From the NCBI GenBank assembly GCA_049512555.1, contig JBEKWZ010000001.1, positions 1 to 35,893 on the forward strand: a DNA stretch of 35,893 nucleotides, in the 5' to 3' direction. Below, one piece after another: positions 13,277 to 35,626 of the stretch. The DNA comes from Candidatus Sulfotelmatobacter sp. (GTDB lineage: Bacteria > Acidobacteriota > Terriglobia > Terriglobales > Acidobacteriaceae). The notes beneath the pieces are model-generated. The model made no database searches. It saw only the letters and a list, made by a program, of their open reading frames with translations, and had not been told where the DNA came from. Positions within the stretch are counted from its first letter, which is position 1. Every line of letters starts with the position of its first letter. The translations under genes and the position numbers were made by a program.

Positions 13277-13948
13277 ATGAAACCCGGGGTTGCGGTCAAG
13301 AAACTCAGCAAATTCGATACCAAGACATTCCTTTCAACCATCGACGGCGGCAGGAAACTCTTAGCTTTTCCCAAGAAACGGACAGTCTTCGCTCAGGGCG
13401 ACTCGTCCGATGCTGTTTTCTATGTACAGAAAGGGAAAGTAAGACTTACGGTTATCTCGAAGACCGGAAATGAAGCCACGATCGGCATCCTGAACGAGGG
13501 CGAATTTTTCGGAGAAGGTTGCCTTGCCGGGCAGCCTCTCCGCCTCTGCTCGGCAACCGCAATGACCGATTGCTCCATAATGCGAATCGATAAGAAGTCC
13601 ATGATGGAAGTGCTTCACGGGGAACACGCGTTTTCCGATATGTTCGTGGCATATCTGTTGAGCCGGAATATCCGATACGAGGAGGATTTGGTTGACCAGC
13701 TTTTCAATTCCAGTGAAAAAAGACTGGCCCGAATGTTGCTACTGTTGGCTCACTTCGGCAAGGACGGAAAGCCCGAATCTGTGATCCCCAAGATCACTCA
13801 GCAGACCCTCGCAGAGATGATCGGCACAACTCGCTCACGGGTAAGCTATTTCATGAACAGGTTCAGGAAATTGGGGTTCGTTGACTATCGCGCCGGCGAT
13901 GTCTTACAGGTTCACAGTTCTCTTCTCAACGTCGTTCTCCACGACTAG
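13277..13948 (+). CDS. Crp/Fnr-family transcriptional regulator
   Basis: cNMP-binding-type fold (FAQGDSSDAVFYVQKGKVRLTV...GEGEFFGEGCL) plus a C-terminal HTH (QQTLAEMIGTTRSRVSYFMNRFRKLGFVDY). It has no N-terminal Cys cluster, so it is not an FNR-type O2 sensor. The ATG at 13277 is preferred over the track start at 13136. Confidence 0.9.
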   Translation: MKPGVAVKKLSKFDTKTFLSTIDGGRKLLAFPKKRTVFAQGDSSDAVFYVQKGKVRLTVISKTGNEATIGILNEGEFFGEGCLAGQPLRLCSATAMTDCSIMRIDKKSMMEVLHGEHAFSDMFVAYLLSRNIRYEEDLVDQLFNSSEKRLARMLLLLAHFGKDGKPESVIPKITQQTLAEMIGTTRSRVSYFMNRFRKLGFVDYRAGDVLQVHSSLLNVVLHD

Positions 13949-14254
13949 AGACTCCACCGCTGCGAAGTGTGCCGTTAATCTCATCTGCTCCCTCTCGGCT
14001 TCGCCATTTCCTTGATGAGTTCGACAAGGGTCGTTCCTGGCCGAATGTTTCTTGGTTTCGTTTACCCCTGATGCCCACAATGTCACGAGCCGACCACAGG
14101 TCAATGTGGACCAAAGACCAGCACGCTACGTTCTGGCGTGTTATAGTGGCCGCCGGGGTGGTTACCACCTTCTCCTCTTTCAGGTCTTCTGACCTAAGCC
14201 AGTCCATCTGAAGTTCTCCCCCCTTAGGTGTTTTAGCGAGAGAGCGATGTGCCC

Positions 14255-14437
14255 ATGCCTTTTCAAGCGATCTTGCGCGAAGTCGATCATCTGAACAAAG
14301 TCAGTACGCGTCTCGAAGCATTGGCGGAGAAACATACGCCATTGTCCGAACCACTCATAACAATCGCCGGAACTGTTCGTAATACGGCCACTCTCCTGGA
14401 GGTCCTGGTGGCAACGAAAGGTCCGAAGCCAATCTGA
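14255..14437 (+). CDS. Small helical protein, paralogue A of an unassigned family
   Basis: About 60 aa. 32 of 51 ungapped aligned residues (my manual count) are identical to the ORF at 21251-21457. The shared core is ILxEV..L..VS.RL..LAE.H...SE.LI.I.G.VR.TATLLEVLVA.K. Conservation between two copies argues that the ORF is real. Confidence 0.65.
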   Translation: MPFQAILREVDHLNKVSTRLEALAEKHTPLSEPLITIAGTVRNTATLLEVLVATKGPKPI

Positions 14438-14750: not shown

Positions 14751-15158
14751 GTGGCCATGGATTCCCCCCTTGTGTTGTGCATTGACGACCTTCCCCCAGT
14801 CCTGGAGCTTCGCAAAGCGACTCTGGAGTCTCATGGTTATTCCGTCAAGATCGCATCGAGCGGCCACACCGCGATGAAGTTGTTGGAGGATGCACCAGTG
14901 GCCGCCGTTCTGCTGGAATACAAACAGGAAGGCATAGACGCGGAAGCCGTAGCTTGGCATATCAAGCAACGATTTCCCAAGCTACCAATCATCTTGCTAT
15001 CAGCGTATGCCGAGATGCCTGAGAGGATCCTGTGGTTGGTGGATGAATACGTGATGAAGAGCGAACTGCCGGAACGGCTGGTACCGATCATTGAACGAGC
15101 GTACAGCCGTGCATCGCGTTCGAACGAACGATGCCAGGCTGGCCAGGCAGCAGCGTAA
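14751..15158 (+). CDS. Single-domain CheY-like receiver with Glu at the phospho-acceptor position (atypical/pseudo-receiver)
   Basis: Receiver hallmarks are present: LCIDD acidic pocket, PIILLSAY, VMK. The position aligned with the phospho-Asp of the two paralogues (VIVDYFMPD, VVVDYHMPE) reads VLLEYKQEG. GAGGAG lies upstream, and the start is either the GTG at 14751 or the ATG at 14757. Confidence 0.85.
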   Translation: MAMDSPLVLCIDDLPPVLELRKATLESHGYSVKIASSGHTAMKLLEDAPVAAVLLEYKQEGIDAEAVAWHIKQRFPKLPIILLSAYAEMPERILWLVDEYVMKSELPERLVPIIERAYSRASRSNERCQAGQAAA

Positions 15159-15769: not shown

Positions 15770-16159
15770 ATGAAGCCCCGAAGCCAAATCGTTCTTTGCA
15801 TCGACGATAACCAAGACTTGCTGGACTGTGAAAAAGCGTTCCTCGAAAGCTTTGGCTATACCGTCCTGACCGCCCCCAGCGGCGGCAAGGGACTGGAACT
15901 GGCTGCCCTCCATTCGGTAGACGTTGTCATTGTCGACTATTTCATGCCTGACATGAACGGCCAAGATGTTGCCATCGAAATGAGACGGCTTCAGCCGCAA
16001 GCGCCAATCATCATGCTATCCGGGGCTGCGGATCTCCCTGACCAGGCGTTGCAGTGGGTAGACGCTTTCGTAGCCAAAGATCGTTTGGCGAGCCAGTTGT
16101 TGCCTGCGATTGCGCAATCGCAGGAAGGTCATGACCGCCAAAGTTGCGGAGCAACCTGA
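15770..16159 (+). CDS. Single-domain CheY-like response regulator (receiver only)
   Basis: LCIDDNQD, VVIVDYFMPDMNG (phospho-Asp), PIIMLSG, FVAKD. It has no output domain. Confidence 0.9.
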   Translation: MKPRSQIVLCIDDNQDLLDCEKAFLESFGYTVLTAPSGGKGLELAALHSVDVVIVDYFMPDMNGQDVAIEMRRLQPQAPIIMLSGAADLPDQALQWVDAFVAKDRLASQLLPAIAQSQEGHDRQSCGAT

Positions 16160-21114: not shown

Positions 21115-21207
21115 GGGGCTCGGATTCAAGACTGGGTCAACACCAATTTCAGGTGTGGGATTTTGCGGATTCATAGTGCGCTTCTAAATGTCGTCCTGCA
21201 CGACTAG
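21115..21207 (+). pseudogene. 3'-terminal relic of a second Crp/Fnr-family regulator gene
   Basis: The frame ending at the stop at 21205-21207 reads ...ILRIHSALLNVVLHD-stop. That is 11/15 identical to the C-terminus of the intact Crp gene (VLQVHSSLLNVVLHD-stop). A shifted frame just upstream reads GLGFKTG (compare KLGFVDY). There is no cNMP-binding or HTH coding sequence upstream, because the MFS gene start occupies that space. Confidence 0.55.
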
Positions 21208-21250: not shown

Positions 21251-21457
21251 TCAGGCGTTCGCTGGATCTAATCCGGAGAGCGGCGTTATCTTCAGCGCCA
21301 CGAGAACTTCCAACAATGTGGCCGTGCTGCGAACGCTTCCTGAGATGGAGATCAGTGCCTCTGAGACGAGGGGGTGCTGCTCCGCCAGCAAGTCAAGGCG
21401 GTCACTAACGTTGTACAGTTGCTGAACTTCGTGCAAGATCACATTCGAGTCCATCAT
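21251..21457 (-). CDS. Small helical protein, paralogue B of the 14255-14437 family
   Basis: 68 aa, beginning MMDSNVILHEVQQLYNVSDRLDLLAEQHPLVSEALISISGSVRSTATLLEVLVALK.... About 63% identical to paralogue A over 51 residues. Confidence 0.65.
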   Translation of the reverse strand: MMDSNVILHEVQQLYNVSDRLDLLAEQHPLVSEALISISGSVRSTATLLEVLVALKITPLSGLDPANA

Positions 21458-21614
21458 ATGTGCGGCTTTCTGAGACGCCTGGAGAAGAGAGGAACTTCAG
21501 ATGGGCTCCACGCAAGTTTTGGGGAGACTTGAAAAGGGTTCGCGGTCTAGCTCCGGAACCCTCATTAGGATCAAAAATAGGATCAAGCAGCGTTAAGCGT
21601 GCAGCCCATGTTCG

Positions 21615-21884: not shown

Positions 21885-23153
21885 TTGGCTTTGACATTTG
21901 CCCCCACTCGATGGATGCGATTGCTGTTGAAGTCGCTCGGTCCTGGCGTTATCACTGGGGCCGCCGACGATGACCCATCCGGCATTGCCACATATTCTGT
22001 CGCCGGAGCACAGCTCGGAACCAAACTTCTCTGGACCGCGCTCCTGACGTGGCCGCTGATGGCTGCCGTTCAAATGATGTGTGCCCGCATCGGCAAAGTG
22101 ACGGGACAAGGCTTAGCGGCGAATTTCAAGCAACGATTTCCAAGTTGGTTGCTACTCGGGGTCGTCACAGCCCTGCTGGCGGCCAACACGATTAATATCG
22201 GAGCGGACCTCGCTGGCATGGCGGATGCGGCGGAAATGCTCTCCGGCATCAAAGCGCACTTTTTCGTTGTGGTTTTCGCGTTTTTGATTTCTTGGGCAAC
22301 AGTTCGGCTCCGTTATCAACAGATGGCGAACATTCTCAAGTGGCTAGTGCTGGTGCTCTTCGCATACCCGATAACCGCATTTGTGGCGAGAGCGGACTGG
22401 AACGGAGTGGCACACGCGACCTTCATACCGTCGATGCCACACACCAGAGATGAATGGTCGATGCTGGTGGCGATTCTCGGCACCACGATCAGTCCGTATT
22501 TGTTTTTCTGGCAGGCAAGTGAAGAGGTTGAAGAGGAAAAGTCGGCAGGTCAGAGTACGCTCGCTGAACGGAGAGGAGCGACACTCAAAGAACTTGAGCT
22601 GAGGAACTTCGATGTAGGTGTTGGTGCGTTTTTTTCCAATGTCGTCATGTTCTTTATCATCCTGACCACGGCGCTCACCCTCAACCGCCACGGCATCACG
22701 CACATCGAGACTACTCGCCAGGCAGCCGAAGCCCTCCGTCCCCTTGCCGGCAAGTTCGCTGCAACCTTGTTTACCATCGGCATTGTCGGCGTCGGGTTTC
22801 TCGCCATCCCAACGCTGGCGGGATCAGCGGCATATGCCTTTGCGGAAACGCTTGGGTGGCGCCAGGGACTGGACAAGAAATTGAAACAGGCCCGTGCGTT
22901 TTACGCTCTCATTCTGCTCTCGACCGTGGTGGGTGTCGGACTGGATTTCGTAGGCATTAATCCCGTGAAGGCACTCTATTGGACGGCAGTCCTCAACGGA
23001 TTGTTAGCTCCCTTTCTTCTCGTCGCAATCCTGGTTATCGCTTCGGACGGCAAGTTGATGCAGGGTCAACCGAGTTCGCGCCTGGGCTGGACCGTCGTAG
23101 CCATCACGACAGTGGCGATGTTCGCCGCTGGCGTAGCCATGTTCGTCGTATAG
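21885..23153 (+). CDS. NRAMP (SLC11)-family transporter, non-canonical metal-site variant
   Basis: About 11 TM helices. The TM1-type motif GPGVITGAADDDPSGIATYS and the TM6-type motif GTTISPYLFFWQASEE place it in the NRAMP superfamily, but DPSG replaces DPGN and SPY replaces MPH. The start is either the TTG at 21885 (GGGAG upstream) or the ATG at 21915. Confidence 0.85.
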   Translation: MALTFAPTRWMRLLLKSLGPGVITGAADDDPSGIATYSVAGAQLGTKLLWTALLTWPLMAAVQMMCARIGKVTGQGLAANFKQRFPSWLLLGVVTALLAANTINIGADLAGMADAAEMLSGIKAHFFVVVFAFLISWATVRLRYQQMANILKWLVLVLFAYPITAFVARADWNGVAHATFIPSMPHTRDEWSMLVAILGTTISPYLFFWQASEEVEEEKSAGQSTLAERRGATLKELELRNFDVGVGAFFSNVVMFFIILTTALTLNRHGITHIETTRQAAEALRPLAGKFAATLFTIGIVGVGFLAIPTLAGSAAYAFAETLGWRQGLDKKLKQARAFYALILLSTVVGVGLDFVGINPVKALYWTAVLNGLLAPFLLVAILVIASDGKLMQGQPSSRLGWTVVAITTVAMFAAGVAMFVV

Positions 23154-23610: not shown

Positions 23611-23820
23611 TCGTCATCAGGCCGGACCAATCCGCCCGTCGCGGCATCTATTGCTGCCGGACTGTTCCGTTTTGCACAGTTTTGGTGGAGTTGCCCTTGA
23701 TACCGTGACCGAGAAAGAAAGAGCGGCGTGATGGCTGAACTAAAAAGAATCGATGAGCACGTCTCGACGGCGGAGTTGATTCCGGCAAAGACCCCGAAAA
23801 ACCCAAGAAGGAGAACACAG

Positions 23821-24000
23821 ATGAACACCAGTACGAAAGATGAGATTAAAGGCACTCTTCATGAAGTAAAGGGCAAAGTCAAAGAGACGGCCGGCAAAGT
23901 GACGAATAATCCCAACTTACAGGCCGAAGGCAACGCCGAAAAAAACACCGGCAAAGTTGAAAAAAAGGTCGGACAGATCGAAAAGGTGTTCGAGAAGTAA
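23821..24000 (+). CDS. CsbD-family stress-response protein
   Basis: The ATG at 23821 follows AAGGAG. The 59-aa product KDEIKGTLHEVKGKVKETAGKVTNNPNLQAEGNAEKNTGKVEKKVGQIEKVFEK is a textbook CsbD repeat pattern. Confidence 0.9.
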   Translation: MNTSTKDEIKGTLHEVKGKVKETAGKVTNNPNLQAEGNAEKNTGKVEKKVGQIEKVFEK

Positions 24001-25566: not shown

Positions 25567-25971
25567 ATGTTCCATTACCCCGGATCCAAAACGATTCTGT
25601 GCATCGACGACGACGACGGCATGCTGCGTTACCAAAAGGCGCTATTCGAAAGACGTGGATTTAAGGTGCTAACCGCCTCCTCCGCCCGACAAGGCATAAG
25701 AATTGCGGCAGCCTGCACGGTTGCTGCCGTGGTCGTGGACTACCACATGCCTGAGATGAATGGTCATGAGGTTGCGCTCGAAATAAAACGCGTCAACCCA
25801 CAAATACCGATAGTGTTGTTTTCCAGTGACGACGCGATTCCAGAACCCGCATTGAATGTCGTGGATGCTTTCGTTTCCAAGAATGAAGCGCCCCAGTACT
25901 TGTTGCCGGTGATCACTCGAATCTGCGGTGAAAATCCTTCCGGTTTTCAAGAAACCAGTATCACGGCGTGA
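25567..25971 (+). CDS. Single-domain CheY-like response regulator (receiver only)
   Basis: LCIDDDDG, AVVVDYHMPEMNG (phospho-Asp), PIVLFSS, FVSKN. It is a paralogue of the 15770-16159 product. Confidence 0.9.
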   Translation: MFHYPGSKTILCIDDDDGMLRYQKALFERRGFKVLTASSARQGIRIAAACTVAAVVVDYHMPEMNGHEVALEIKRVNPQIPIVLFSSDDAIPEPALNVVDAFVSKNEAPQYLLPVITRICGENPSGFQETSITA

Positions 25972-28262: not shown

Positions 28263-30038
28263 CTAGACGCAACTACGGAGCTCCACTACCTGACCTTCCA
28301 AGGTAGCTATTCTCTCCCGTGCAGCATCGACCGCCGCGGCTCCCTCGTGCCGTATTCGTCTGGCATTCCTGAGGGCCTGTTCCGCCACGCGACTGACCTC
28401 ATGCAGGAGTTTGCGAATCTCAACCTCCAGATGCCCATGGCTCTCTTGAATGCGGCTCAGGATGTCGCTCTGTACGCGCGTGCTGTTGACTTCGAGCAGT
28501 GTGACTAGGAATTCTCGTACGTCGTTCTTAATCAAGAACAGAGCACCGATGAAACTCAGGAAGACGTCAGCCAGCCACCGCAGAGGTGAGACAGGCTGCG
28601 CAACCTGGATGAAATCGGCGAAAGTGAAGGTCGAAGGAACACGAAAGCCGACTTCCGGGTCGAGCGCGTGCGGCATGCGCGCGAGCTCGGGAACACCTCC
28701 CTCAGCAAGCTTCTTCAGGAAATTATTACCGATCTCAACGAACCGAGGTGAGACTCTGCGGTACTGCTGCTCCGCTTCCTCCTGCTCGGGTCTCAACCAC
28801 GGAGTCACATAACGTTTGGCGATCTCTTGGGCCTGCTTCATCAGTCGGCGACGATAGCGAGGGCCGAGCGCATAGGGGCAGGACGAAATTGCTTCTTCAA
28901 GCTCCGTCCTCGCTCCCGGCAATGCTCTTGCGAGAAATGCCTTATGCCGATCGACAAACATATCGGAAATGTGTCGCTGCTCCGCCATGAATAGAAACCT
29001 CAGTTCTCGCATCGATCGTTCAGCTTCTGCGATCGTCATCTTCATGGTCGCAATTCGCCGCTCCGACTCCTCAATGGGCCGCAGCAGTGCTTCCCGCTCT
29101 TCACCTATCACTGCCAGCAGTTGCTCGCTGAGTCGTCCGATCCCCCGCTCACAGGCCGAATAGATCAGCCTCCGCCCAGATTGCTCAAGCAGCCCGTCAA
29201 GAACACTAACCAGCTTTTGCCAATCACGTTCTGGCCCATGATTATCGATTCGTTCCGTCGCACTCACCTCTAAAATCAGCCCGAGGCCTCGCTGCAGTTT
29301 CTTCCGCACTTGACGGTCCGTGAAATCCATGGCAGCGATCTTTTCTTCAGGGGTTGTCCGATCTGCCTTGTTAAGAACCAGAACAATATCCTGGACGTGC
29401 TGCGCTACGGCTTCGACGAGGTCGAGCTCTTCTCCAGCCAGCGGTGGATCGGCACCGATCACGACCATGGCCGCATCGATATGGGGTATGAATGCATGCG
29501 TTGCCGCCGTATTGCCGGTGAATACTGAGCCGAGGCCGGGAGTATCGACGAAGCACATCCCGCCCGCCAATAGGGGGCTCGGCATAAAAACCTCTACGCC
29601 CCGAATTCCCTTCGAGTTCTCAGGGTTATTCTCTTCCGATACGTACTGATTGAGATCGCAGACGGACACGTCTTGCCAGGAACCATTTGCCGCTTGTATT
29701 CGCGCCTTTCTCTGATCCCCGAACCTTATTACGGTCGGAACTGCGGTCACCGGAGTGAAGCCAACGGGAAGGACAGCGTCGCCAATCAGAGCGTTGATCA
29801 GCGTGGACTTGCCGCGTTTGAATTGACCAACACACGCGACATAGAAACGGCCCTCGGCGATCCGGTTAGCTAGATCCCTCGCCTCCTCAGCGATTCGACT
29901 CGAACCTAATTCCTCGGCAAGTTCGGCGAGACAACGAAGCCTCGAGGCACCGTCAACGTCACTCGTCACAGTAGGTACCGACGGGGGATATTCTTGGGCG
30001 CTAACCGCCATTGACGAATTGTCTTCTCTCTTCGTCAT
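28263..30038 (-). CDS. Bacterial dynamin-like GTPase (DLP-2)
   Basis: G1 GQFKRGKST (aa 71-79), G3 FVDTPGLGSV, G4 VLNKADRT. A long helical stalk follows, with a hydrophobic segment WLADVFLSFIGALFLI near the C-terminus. The ATG lies 6 nt after the stop of the DUF190 gene. Confidence 0.88.
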   Translation of the reverse strand: MTKREDNSSMAVSAQEYPPSVPTVTSDVDGASRLRCLAELAEELGSSRIAEEARDLANRIAEGRFYVACVGQFKRGKSTLINALIGDAVLPVGFTPVTAVPTVIRFGDQRKARIQAANGSWQDVSVCDLNQYVSEENNPENSKGIRGVEVFMPSPLLAGGMCFVDTPGLGSVFTGNTAATHAFIPHIDAAMVVIGADPPLAGEELDLVEAVAQHVQDIVLVLNKADRTTPEEKIAAMDFTDRQVRKKLQRGLGLILEVSATERIDNHGPERDWQKLVSVLDGLLEQSGRRLIYSACERGIGRLSEQLLAVIGEEREALLRPIEESERRIATMKMTIAEAERSMRELRFLFMAEQRHISDMFVDRHKAFLARALPGARTELEEAISSCPYALGPRYRRRLMKQAQEIAKRYVTPWLRPEQEEAEQQYRRVSPRFVEIGNNFLKKLAEGGVPELARMPHALDPEVGFRVPSTFTFADFIQVAQPVSPLRWLADVFLSFIGALFLIKNDVREFLVTLLEVNSTRVQSDILSRIQESHGHLEVEIRKLLHEVSRVAEQALRNARRIRHEGAAAVDAARERIATLEGQVVELRSCV

Positions 30039-30493: not shown

Positions 30494-32545
30494 TTAGGAC
30501 GCTGCTTCTATAACTTCGCGTTCTCTCTGCAAGGCGCCGAGACTCTTGCGGATCGCCTGTTCTTGTTCGCTCGACAGCTCGTGAGGACCGGCCAATCGCT
30601 CCAACTGGGCGCGATAGCCATTCGCGTAGGCATCGAATCGGCGTCGAATCTGACTGATCATCCTATCGCCCCAAGCCTCGACGAGTTGCCGATATGCGTG
30701 GAGGGCCCGCACAATATGTGGCCCTACTGATCTCGCCAGCTTCCTGGCGGTCCACTTCTTGGCGAAGCCTTGTCCCAGGAGGAAGGCCATCCTCGGACGA
30801 TTAACGATCAAAGTCACTGTTCCGAAATCGAGTACTGGCATTTCACGCAGAAAACTGGAAAACTCGCCATCGCCCGGCATGTCGGCCTGCTTCAGTACCT
30901 CTGCGGCTGATCGCAAACTCTGGTGAAGTTCGCTCCCAAGAGCCGCGAGAATGTCCCGCAGCTGAGCGCTTTTCTCTTGAACGGTTGCGTTCACCGTATC
31001 GAGAACAACCCGTTGCGCGTCGATTTCCTGGCCGCCACGTTTCCAAGACTCCACCAAAGCGGCCGCGGCTTTCCATAGGGCTGGTGAACCAAGGTCGGCG
31101 ATTTCACTCCCAATCCGCCTCAGGCTTGAGTTGGCCTCCTGCAGTTTCCCGCTGGCCTGTCGGAGCCTGGCCTCGACACTACGAATCTGCTCTTCATCTA
31201 TTTCGGGATTCTCTCTCTTCGGCCGCAACCGCACTTTGAGAGCAGCCTCCACCGATTGCTGCAAAGCTCCAACCTTCCGCCGGATCGAACGTACCTTCAA
31301 TTCCTGCCGCCGGTTGTAAAGCGGGCCAATATCGTTCTCAAACCAATCGTTCAATAGATTCCTTGCGCTCGGCACCGCACTGACAGGGTGTACCTGTATC
31401 TCCAGGTTGAGTTCCGAACGGATGTGATCCTTCACATACTCGATCACTTGGCCACGATCTTCGGCAGACAGGAGATCAGCTTTGCTCAACAAAACGTTCG
31501 CTGGAATACCGGCCTCATACAGAGTTTGCACAGTCCTCAGGTCATCAGGCGTGAGCGTGGAACCCGCGTCAATGAGCACGACGCCTAGATCGCAGCGGGG
31601 CAGATAAGCCAGTGTCTCCGCCGCCCCACGAGTCGCCAACGACCCTAGCCCTGGAGTGTCCACAAAGGCTATTCCATCTCGCAATCGGGGTGCTGACATT
31701 TGCAGGACGACCCGAGTGACGTGTTTTTCATTGCCCGGATTGCCCTGCTCTGCGACAAACTCCGCCAACCGCGAAATCTCAAACTGTTCGGGCGCGCGAT
31801 TCGCACACCAAACGTTGACAGCCGCAGTCTCGCCATAAACGATTCGCGTGGGAACGGCTGTAATCGGAACAACGCCAACTGGCAGCACATCGGTTCCGAG
31901 GGTTGCATTCAGGAGTGAGGACTTGCCGGAGCTCACTCGCCCGAAGATGGCAATTTCGAAACTCTTGTCCTCAAGCCGGTCGAGAATCATGGAGAGGATC
32001 GACCGGAATTCCACCAATCCCTGATCGGTGATGATAGCTTCAAGTCTCCTGAGCAGAGCTACCTCGTCTCCAGCTTGCTCCAACCGGAGCAGGCGATCTT
32101 GCAGATTCTCGCCTGCTCCGCGTGTGATGTACTGATCCAACTGATTGCTAAGGCTGAGTAGTTCGGCGGCAATCCCATTGAGCTCGATGGCCGCCGCAGG
32201 TGGGATCTCTCCATAGCCGCGCATGTATTTCGGCTGCAACTCCTCAGCGGCAATCGCAACAAATGTCAGAACCGTATGAAGCGATCGGCTGACTGGAATG
32301 GAAGCTCCGGGACGTTCGATGCCCTGGCCGTCGAGAACGCGAATTAACTGAGCTCGGATGCGGGCAATATGGTCTTCGATCACTCGTCTTTGCGCTGGTG
32401 TGATGTCGAGCAAGTACTCGGGAAATGCCTTCTTGGAGTCAGACACGCGGAGCGCGCTCTCCATATCACCCAGGAGTTTATCGATGTGCCGACAAGTTAC
32501 CGACAGGCGCCGAGCGTGGTTCGAGTTGAGAGACTCCTCCGGCAT
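30494..32545 (-). CDS. Bacterial dynamin-like GTPase (DLP-1) with ~200-aa N-terminal helical extension
   Basis: G1 GRVSSGKSS, G3 FVDTPGLGSL, G4 LLSKADLL, followed by a long helical C-terminal stalk. The ATG at 32545 (GGAG 5 nt upstream) is preferred over the GTG at 32560. Confidence 0.88.
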   Translation of the reverse strand: MPEESLNSNHARRLSVTCRHIDKLLGDMESALRVSDSKKAFPEYLLDITPAQRRVIEDHIARIRAQLIRVLDGQGIERPGASIPVSRSLHTVLTFVAIAAEELQPKYMRGYGEIPPAAAIELNGIAAELLSLSNQLDQYITRGAGENLQDRLLRLEQAGDEVALLRRLEAIITDQGLVEFRSILSMILDRLEDKSFEIAIFGRVSSGKSSLLNATLGTDVLPVGVVPITAVPTRIVYGETAAVNVWCANRAPEQFEISRLAEFVAEQGNPGNEKHVTRVVLQMSAPRLRDGIAFVDTPGLGSLATRGAAETLAYLPRCDLGVVLIDAGSTLTPDDLRTVQTLYEAGIPANVLLSKADLLSAEDRGQVIEYVKDHIRSELNLEIQVHPVSAVPSARNLLNDWFENDIGPLYNRRQELKVRSIRRKVGALQQSVEAALKVRLRPKRENPEIDEEQIRSVEARLRQASGKLQEANSSLRRIGSEIADLGSPALWKAAAALVESWKRGGQEIDAQRVVLDTVNATVQEKSAQLRDILAALGSELHQSLRSAAEVLKQADMPGDGEFSSFLREMPVLDFGTVTLIVNRPRMAFLLGQGFAKKWTARKLARSVGPHIVRALHAYRQLVEAWGDRMISQIRRRFDAYANGYRAQLERLAGPHELSSEQEQAIRKSLGALQREREVIEAAS

Positions 32546-32791
32546 AAAGCTCCAGCGCACGCAGAGACACGCATCCCGCGCCTAAATTTGTACTCAGCTA
32601 TTTCAGGAATCTCTTGGGATCAGAAGATGGAGGGGAAAACGCTGAACAATTAGCCCCTACCAAGAGAATTCCTTCTTCTTCGTAGGAGTCATCTGCCCAG
32701 TGCGGGCGGTTAAAGGTGAACTCCAACACCCAGTGAAATTATGACAACCCAGGAAGGCGAAGTCAATGGTCGCCCCGGACCGTAGCGAAGA

Positions 32792-33758: not shown

Positions 33759-34199
33759 TCAGTGCACGACCATCACGGGGCAATGGGCATACCTCAAAAC
33801 GCGCTCCGAGACCGAACCTAACATCATTCGGGAGATCATTGATCGTCCGCGCCGTCCCACGATAATCAGGTCAATGCCGTCCGCCTCGGCCCGATGGATG
33901 ATCTGCTCGCCGGGATGCCCTACTGCCATGTCGGTCTTTACATCCAGGTCATGGGCTCGCGCCTTTTCAAGGATCTTCTTGAATCCTTCTTGATAGTGCT
34001 CCTTCGCATCGTCCAGCACAGCCTCCAGTTCAACCGATGTTGGAGGCTCCGGGGGGCGGGCAACCGCGAAGACCAGGACGGTCGAATCGATGCAATCGGC
34101 AAGGGACAGTGCGACCTCCACAGCCTTCTCCGACTGCGGAGATCCGTCATATCCCACCAACAAATGTCGAAAATGCGCATTCTGTCTTTTACCAGTCAT
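33759..34199 (-). CDS. Universal stress protein (UspA family)
   Basis: LLVGYDGSPQSEKAVEVAL..., IIVGRRGRSMISRMMLGSVSERVLRYAHCPVMVVH (ATP-binding G-2x-G-9x-GS motif). Its ATG overlaps the TGA of the antiporter gene (ATGA). Confidence 0.92.
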   Translation of the reverse strand: MTGKRQNAHFRHLLVGYDGSPQSEKAVEVALSLADCIDSTVLVFAVARPPEPPTSVELEAVLDDAKEHYQEGFKKILEKARAHDLDVKTDMAVGHPGEQIIHRAEADGIDLIIVGRRGRSMISRMMLGSVSERVLRYAHCPVMVVH

Positions 34200-35410: not shown

Positions 35411-35626
35411 AGCACACCTCGACTTCTGAAGTTTGCAGCGGATTCTTGCCGGTACCATGACTCCGCGACAAGGCCCGCTTGTCAGGAGTCATCAGCTGTT
35501 CCCGGCTCAAAGATAGGACAGCGGTTGGCGGTGAACTCCTTCACCGTTTACTGCTCAATACCTATGATGCTTTCCGAACACCGCTAGAGTCAAGCGCTTA
35601 GAAGTCGTTCGAACACAATTGGAAAT

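Follow-up and report, generated by a model that had tools for sequence, protein, structure and literature searches.

Sda of Bacillus subtilis is a helical hairpin of 46 aa that inhibits the sporulation kinase KinA. The cyanobacterial clock protein KaiA combines an N-terminal pseudo-receiver with a C-terminal helical domain for dimerisation and KaiC binding, and it is encoded upstream of kaiB-kaiC. MicroProteins, a concept used mainly for plants and animals, are small proteins that copy one interaction domain and titrate the partners of a larger protein. The pair TraM-TraR serves as a model for a small partner that binds the dimer of a regulator.

Bacteria of the class Terriglobia rank among the most abundant in acidic soils and peat, and hardly any work has explored their regulation. 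Here we describe a family of short helical proteins found in a stretch of 35,893 nucleotides from Candidatus Sulfotelmatobacter sp. (the window), where it occurs as two copies, A and B (Table 1). The original prediction had proposed that both ORFs belong to a lineage-specific regulatory family linked to Crp genes and orphan receivers. Both are present and translate as predicted. For copy A an alternative in-frame start codon (GTG) lies at 14249; copy B probably starts at the second ATG (21454), since its orthologues, to which it is 70–85% identical, begin with M-[PDH]-S-N. BLASTP aligns the two proteins without gaps with 33/55 identities (E=7e-20), close to the 32/51 that had been counted by hand. 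This similarity is far beyond what an alignment of chance sequences would give and marks A and B as paralogues within one family.

Table 1. Features of the window and of related loci (L numbers)
Feature	Position	Strand	Evidence or details
Intact Crp/Fnr-family regulator, 223 aa, neighbour of A	13277–13948	+	PF00027 2e-20, PF13545 2e-11
Decayed remnant of small basic ORF (elsewhere MGKRKTKKQSAKATLAEVIKEMAKPRVA...) in the Crp-hairpin spacer	13981–14061	-	conserved peptide
Extended -10-like promoter element TGTTATAGT of A	14139–14147	+	conservation
Conserved 5′ leader of A	14154–14254	+	5′ hairpin 14155–14171, CU-rich tract, core CTTCTCCTCTTTCAGGTCTTCTGACCTAAGCCAGTCCATCTGAAGTTCTCC..CCTTAGG 14169–14228
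Copy A, A-type, 60-aa helical-hairpin mini-protein	14255–14437	+	translation, homologue clusters, AlphaFold2, dN/dS
Single-domain receiver downstream of A	14751–15158
Single-domain receiver downstream of A	15770–16159
Relic of Crp gene, last ~20 codons and stop	21145–21207	+	tblastn 13/21 identical, E=5e-4 within the window
Copy B, B-type, 67/68-aa hairpin mini-protein, C-terminal tail ..PLSGLDPANA	21251–21457	-	translation, orthologues, dN/dS
Degenerate leader of B	21458–21560	-	keeps CCATCTGAAGTTC (21492–21504, exact match); 5′ half of core lost
Third orphan receiver	25567–25971
Long form with leader-derived linker	L085 1764–2420		inside Crp-LONG-NDOM-KaiC cluster
~60-nt leader core (CTTCTCCTCTTTCAGGTCNTCTGAACTAAGTCAGCCCATCTGAAG...CTTAG) elsewhere	L007 6097–6151	-
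Leader core, as above	L017 2343–2401	-
Leader core, as above	L017 8903–8955
Leader core, as above	L005 4500–4551
Leader core, as above	L047 6144–6201
Leader core, as above	L071 2496–2553
Leader core, as above	L053 2236–2286	-

A protein search with copy A returned 1823 homologue clusters at 90% identity (E≤0.01), most of them 60 aa long, starting with MPF and derived from MAGs of Terriglobales or Ca. Sulfotelmatobacter; every one carries a hypothetical annotation and none contains a Pfam domain. An HMM run exhaustively against 1.84 billion cluster representatives gave 514 clusters at 50% identity (E≤0.001). In 185,579 species, each represented by one genome, we located 246 stretches; the 80 loci that were retained all belong to the class Terriglobia of the Acidobacteriota, and all homologue sequences derive from MAGs and metagenomes. 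The family shares a domain of ∼55 residues with the core ILxEVxxLxxVSxRLxxLAxxHPxxxExLxxIxGxxRNTATxLEVL, which either occurs free (60–67 aa) or forms the C-terminal domain in a larger protein of ∼215 aa, here called LONG. Residues E9, L13, R19, L20, A24, L34, A45 and L48 are invariant across short and long forms, and A and B each carry the full set. Searches of the hairpin against Pfam and NCBIfam profiles, including HisKA and Hpt, yielded no match at E≤10, and PADLOC defence-system models and plasmid records were likewise without a match. These searches characterize the hairpin as an undescribed family that is restricted to Terriglobia.

Among the outcomes that the prediction had named as counting against it are the absence of homologues elsewhere and a dN/dS near 1. 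Besides the 1823 clusters, we found a median dN/dS of 0.21 in 1429 orthologue pairs from 54 sixty-residue orthologues, with codon-position entropies of 0.47/0.32/1.02 in the same set. Copy B gave dN/dS values of 0.05–0.23 against eleven B-type orthologues; between A and B themselves dN is 0.30 and dS, which is saturated, 2.27. These values indicate purifying selection on both ORFs and identify them as real genes. A sceptic could point to the weak Shine-Dalgarno sequences of the short ORFs and to the degenerate leader and dead neighbour of copy B, and take both for chance ORFs or decaying pieces of the long gene without function. However, dN/dS lies between 0.05 and 0.23, start and length are kept over hundreds of clusters and third codon positions carry most of the variation; the selection tests refute this reading, which we consider hardly credible.

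As the prediction had suggested, we modelled the structure of the protein: AlphaFold2 yields for the monomer of A, from an alignment of 18 sequences, two helices (residues 2–26 and 28–55) with a mean pLDDT of 91.8, a confidently predicted antiparallel two-helix hairpin. Together with the confinement to Terriglobia and the purifying selection, the model bears out the claim of a lineage-specific, conserved helical mini-protein family. The best sequence match in the PDB, and the only one found there, is the designed antiparallel four-helix coiled coil sc-apCC-4 (E=0.0011), which the model matches in Foldseek with a TM score of 0.82. All PDB structures that Foldseek matched to the short form, whether designed coiled coils, ferritin or chemoreceptor tips, are antiparallel helix pairs of a generic kind, and no match had an E-value below 0.4.

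A histidine in the motif LAE(K/Q)H had been described as invariant and compared with the H-box of histidine kinases, from which a free-standing phosphotransfer hairpin of the DHp or HPt kind, serving receivers that lack a kinase, was considered. The helical hairpin fold is compatible with such a role, and A is indeed followed by two receivers, in the window as well as in a few close relatives. The histidine (residue 27) is indeed common to A and B, but in the family it is found in only 85% of 182 short forms and 67% of 122 long forms, the other residues being mostly N or Y, which replace it in 10–30% of members. It is the sole non-helical residue of the AlphaFold2 model, located in the turn between the helices and not in the middle of a helix. 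No HisKA or Hpt profile matches, and hhalign of the hairpin with the histidine kinase of the associated operon (see below) gives a probability of 0.2%. Most loci are also devoid of receivers. Single-domain receivers are present at three places in the window, two after A and one elsewhere, just as described; however, among the 80 loci a receiver directly follows the hairpin gene only in L014, L034 and L039, which are close relatives of copy A, and none was found beside the hairpin gene in L001–L008. This neighbour survey rules out a receiver partnership as a general feature. Since the histidine is neither invariant nor placed in a helix and receivers are not general neighbours, we reject the phosphotransfer reading as very improbable: judged by conservation and model, the hairpin is not a phospho-His protein and its H-box resemblance is coincidental.

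The association with Crp proved much more robust. Copy A starts 306 nt past the stop codon of the intact Crp gene, in agreement with the prediction, and the proposed relic beside copy B is real: positions 21145–21204 match the last 21 residues of the intact Crp with 13 identities, and the relic, convergent with B, ends 43 nt from its stop codon. Linkage in other genomes, a check that had also been suggested, was found in most loci: a Crp homologue 67–87% identical to that of the window lies immediately beside the short gene in 60/80 loci, and of the 20 loci without an adjacent Crp several have no flanking sequence on the relevant side. Three arrangements can be distinguished. Crp lies upstream and codirectional in 34 loci (A-type, gap ∼180–320 nt, orthologues 73–87% identical), upstream and divergent in 11 (gap 294–440 nt), and downstream and convergent in 15 (B-type), where an intact Crp follows at a fixed gap of 53–61 nt. 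The window combines an A-type module with a decayed convergent B-type module consisting of B and the Crp relic. An intermediate is found in L088, in which a half-length Crp stands beside the hairpin gene. The Crp proteins form three clades that match the three arrangements (nearest neighbour in the same class in 52/52 cases), and pairwise identities of Crp and hairpin correlate with r=0.55; matching clades and correlated identities show that Crp-hairpin modules diversified as units. Copy B is under selection although its own Crp has decayed, which makes a strict one-to-one dependence on Crp unlikely. An anti-regulator role of the hairpin, as proposed in the prediction, or an adaptor role is a live reading.

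The spacer between Crp and hairpin gene contains a further, small basic ORF on the opposite strand, whose peptide is conserved in ∼20 A-type loci. It is called as a 33-aa gene in L001–L003 (L001 5851–5952, minus strand) and is intact in, for example, L009, L019, L041, L045 and L051, while the copy in the window lacks a start codon.

Some of the matches from the exhaustive search are 207–228 aa long and carry the hairpin at the C-terminus of an unknown N-domain. This long form is a large family in its own right with 2966 matches, typically of 215 aa; eight long forms searched against Pfam and NCBIfam matched no family. The AlphaFold2 monomer model of LONG is mostly helical with a mediocre pLDDT of 68, and Foldseek found no structural neighbour for it. 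LONG is the first gene of an operon in the order LONG, NDOM, KaiC-like double-domain ATPase and, often, a PAS-HisKA-HATPase kinase. NDOM (142 aa) is a paralogue of the N-domain of LONG without the hairpin and, like LONG, has neither a Pfam family nor a structural neighbour; the ATPase (497 aa) matches PF06745 at 2.7e-77 and scores 254 bits with the NCBIfam KaiC model, below its 408-bit cut-off. In 41 of the 44 LONG loci (of 84) that have at least 1.5 kb of downstream sequence, NDOM and the KaiC-like gene follow next and in the same direction. The operon with the PAS kinase was seen in Terriglobia at L089 5001–8949, in L090–L092 and in L093–L172. The Crp subfamily of the short-form loci recurs here as well: it is encoded <1 kb upstream of LONG in 8/50 loci and somewhere in 22/84 LONG loci.

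Long forms of a second kind (L085, P0167, P0148) differ in their linker, the DNA of which is the in-frame 3′ half of the leader of the short gene with the ATG changed to ACA. This suggests that the L085-type LONG arose independently, when a short hairpin gene was fused anew to an N-domain gene, so that N-domain and hairpin were apparently joined at least twice; by the logic of gene fusions ('Rosetta stone'), repeated joining argues that free hairpin and N-domain proteins work together. The opposite derivation, in which the short form results from truncation of a long gene and a coding relic lies upstream of it, was considered and rejected: the upstream match to the mainstream long forms is weak and gapped, and the match to L085, which is clear, runs in the reverse sense, with the 3′ half of the leader being translated as linker. 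We also encountered fusions of the hairpin to HisKA_3 and of PAS to the hairpin. Each is represented by one or two clusters on contigs of ∼1 kb with junk C-termini, and we therefore treat them as unreliable. Many predicted proteins of 70–200 aa from the same habitats (P0391–P0506) carry a HisKA_3 domain only; they could be fragments from short contigs or free-standing DHp proteins.

Upstream of the short gene, ∼110 nt ahead of the ATG are conserved more strongly than the ORF itself. A TG-n-TAnnnT element, nearly invariant in 74 aligned loci, is placed at a fixed distance before the leader; from this conservation we infer a role as a promoter of the extended -10 type. It is followed by a leader with a ∼60-nt core, CTTCTCCTCTTTCAGGTCTTCTGACCTAAGCCAGTCCATCTGAAGTTCTCC..CCTTAGG, which is almost invariant in all three module types. 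The leader of A is recognized by nhmmer with E=2e-19, that of B only weakly (E=0.46); L088 carries the same leader variant as B. With an HMM of the core we found 107 copies in the window and 172 loci, 84 of them before hairpin genes and 23 before other genes, namely those for Hsp20, an ABM-like protein of 105–113 aa, DUF2934 proteins and a signal-peptide protein. In this second group a strong AGGAGG usually precedes the ATG. In peat and wetland metatranscriptomes the depth of the core is 5–10 times that of the ORF, and many contigs diverge just past the core. Both would be expected if many transcripts share the core, although DNA carry-over is possible; no transcription start could be called from these contigs, which run through the promoter.

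The leader core can adopt two mutually exclusive foldings, each 94–97% paired: one with UUUCAG/CUGAAG enclosing CUGA/UCAG, the other with UCAGR-NNN-YCUGA plus CUAAG/CUUAG. Minimum free energy predictions give the first folding in 4/5 leaders and place the Shine-Dalgarno sequence of Hsp20 inside a short hairpin. Covariation is no better than in shuffled alignments because the sequence barely varies, and single-sequence folding z-scores lie between -0.02 and -1.6. Rfam holds no family that matches the leader. The core can also be read as two palindromes of the form TCAG-N5-CTGA, which makes a DNA operator just as possible; the core is thus a candidate RNA thermometer or riboregulator, or else a transcribed DNA operator. 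A search for a Crp box upstream of the hairpin promoter revealed no conserved palindrome. The element CTGA-N6-TCAG in the leader has the geometry of an FNR-like site, but it is degenerate in A-type leaders and was discarded. Its only exact match in the window, CTGAACAAAGTCAG at 14291–14304 (plus strand), lies inside ORF A and is probably a coincidence, since a single match is at chance level (0.7 expected).

Hairpin genes elsewhere are located in islands of small stress genes (Hsp20, CSD, dodecin, CsbD, Usp, DUF2934). By virtue of the shared core, whether this works as RNA or as DNA, the hairpin gene belongs to a group of small stress genes that have one control element in common. The window itself is rich in stress and ion genes (21885–23153, 23728–24000, 25567–25971 and 33759–34199), encoding an NRAMP transporter, a CsbD-like protein, the third orphan receiver and a universal stress protein, a neighbourhood that fits the setting seen in other loci. 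It also contains two fluoride riboswitches (RF01734; 48 and 43 bits) at 32676–32739 and 35476–35554, both on the minus strand. One stands ahead of a pair of genes for an Na+/H+ exchanger and a Usp, the other ahead of tandem genes for dynamin-family GTPases (30494–32560 and 28263–30038), which seem to be unusual cargo downstream of a fluoride riboswitch.

Taken together, the hairpin probably serves a stress-signalling pathway as a small binding module, not as a phosphate carrier. The specific explanation that we tentatively favour, as a possibility somewhat short of an even chance, is that the free hairpin acts as a stress-controlled, non-enzymatic binding module on the N-domain/KaiC-like module and the linked Crp. 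The free hairpin would bind proteins, probably pairing into a four-helix bundle, with its amount being set by the stress-responsive leader. It would engage the partner of LONG's own hairpin, that is the N-domain proteins of the KaiC-like module, either completing NDOM or competing with LONG, and would thereby adjust a stress-signalling pathway that acts on transcription through the linked Crp-family regulator. Stress control is suggested by the presence of the leader core ahead of genes for Hsp20, ABM-like and DUF2934 proteins and by a report on Pseudomonas, in which KaiC-like proteins contribute to stress resistance along with a kinase and response regulator (bioRxiv 10.1101/2022.01.26.477890). 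Against this explanation, short-form genes are not located near KaiC-like operons: no KaiC-like gene is present in or near the short-form loci. It is Crp, and not NDOM, that lies close to the short form and diversifies together with it, which fits a direct partnership with Crp at least as well.

In such a partnership the hairpin would be the cognate partner of the neighbouring Crp, binding the Crp dimer as an anti-activator or co-factor in the manner of TraM, while LONG would bring this hairpin to Crp in a manner controlled by the KaiC-like module. That Crp and hairpin form the minimal conserved unit, adjacent in 60/80 loci across three gene arrangements and with matching clades (52/52) and correlated identities (r=0.55), speaks for this idea, as does the recurrence of the same Crp subfamily at LONG operons. 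However, copy B is intact and selected beside a destroyed Crp, 20/80 loci have no adjacent Crp, and a regulator and its target gene would likewise show adjacency with co-diversification; on balance we regard the partnership as rather unlikely. Alternatively the hairpin, perhaps a target of Crp, could be a small effector in a heat or general stress regulon that has no signalling role, for example an RNA binder like Rop or a protective, chaperone-like four-helix bundle, and its fusion to the N-domain would then provide a structural dimerisation module. The nearly invariant leader shared with Hsp20, DUF2934, ABM-like and secreted small proteins, the location in stress-gene islands and the strong promoter-like element of its own are all compatible with an effector. 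We nevertheless judge this explanation unlikely, as it accounts neither for the specific, co-diversifying linkage to Crp nor for the repeated fusion to the N-domain in KaiC-like operons, nor for the invariant polar residues E9 and R19 common to free and fused forms. A more far-reaching reading, which we put forward as distinctly doubtful, is that Terriglobia possess an unrecognised KaiC-like stress or timing system in which LONG and NDOM use the hairpin as the coupling element to a dedicated Crp; free hairpins would be stress-induced, detachable switching subunits, expressed via a new, nearly invariant leader element that marks out the heat/stress regulon of these soil bacteria (Hsp20, DUF2934, ABM-like, hairpin).

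An anonymous pair of 60-aa ORFs has thus become a defined domain family with candidate partners, namely the N-domain proteins, the KaiC-like ATPase and one Crp subfamily. The interaction networks of non-cyanobacterial KaiC homologues are largely unknown (10.1101/2022.01.26.477890). Should the hairpin prove to link a KaiC-like ATPase with a Crp-type regulator, this would reveal how these homologues pass on their state, and the shared leader would offer a handle on the stress regulon of the uncultured majority. Hairpin family and leader are candidates for entries in Pfam and Rfam, respectively.

Among the described systems, KaiA resembles LONG in the position of its gene: two small genes precede a KaiC-type double ATPase (41/44 loci), a likeness that concerns the long form only. 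Like KaiA, LONG ends in a helical module with a possible role in dimerisation. However, it matches no Pfam or NCBIfam family, KaiA is absent among the Foldseek and PDB-sequence matches, and the N-domain is predicted to be helical and not receiver-like. The operon also differs from kai in that its second small gene is no kaiB but arose as a paralogue of the first, and the ATPase stays below the NCBIfam cut-off for KaiC (254 versus 408 bits). Rop/Rom, a 63-aa hairpin that forms a homodimeric four-helix bundle, and designed antiparallel four-helix coiled coils have the same size and fold class as the short form; the resemblance is no more than one of generic fold. The leader shares with RNA thermometers (ROSE, fourU, Synechocystis hsp17) its conserved position upstream of Hsp20 and a Shine-Dalgarno sequence within a predicted short hairpin. 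It differs from them in matching no Rfam family and in its nearly invariant core of ∼60 nt, with covariation not above shuffles, and its repeated TCAG/CTGA half-sites would suit a DNA operator equally well.

Sda is likewise a very small protein of two antiparallel helices that lacks catalytic residues; the hairpin, too, is proposed to dock onto a signalling protein, at a level governed by a stress input. The two are unrelated in sequence: Pfam models for Sda and Spo0E-like proteins do not match the hairpin, and a possible similarity of V-S-x-R-L-E to the Spo0E motif (SQELD) is unsupported. The hairpin, unlike Sda, is confined to Terriglobia, is also fused to a larger protein and is linked to Crp and KaiC-like genes. 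As with microProteins, a single domain of a multidomain signalling protein exists here also as a protein by itself, the free hairpin, which is encoded elsewhere and separately controlled and may act by titration.
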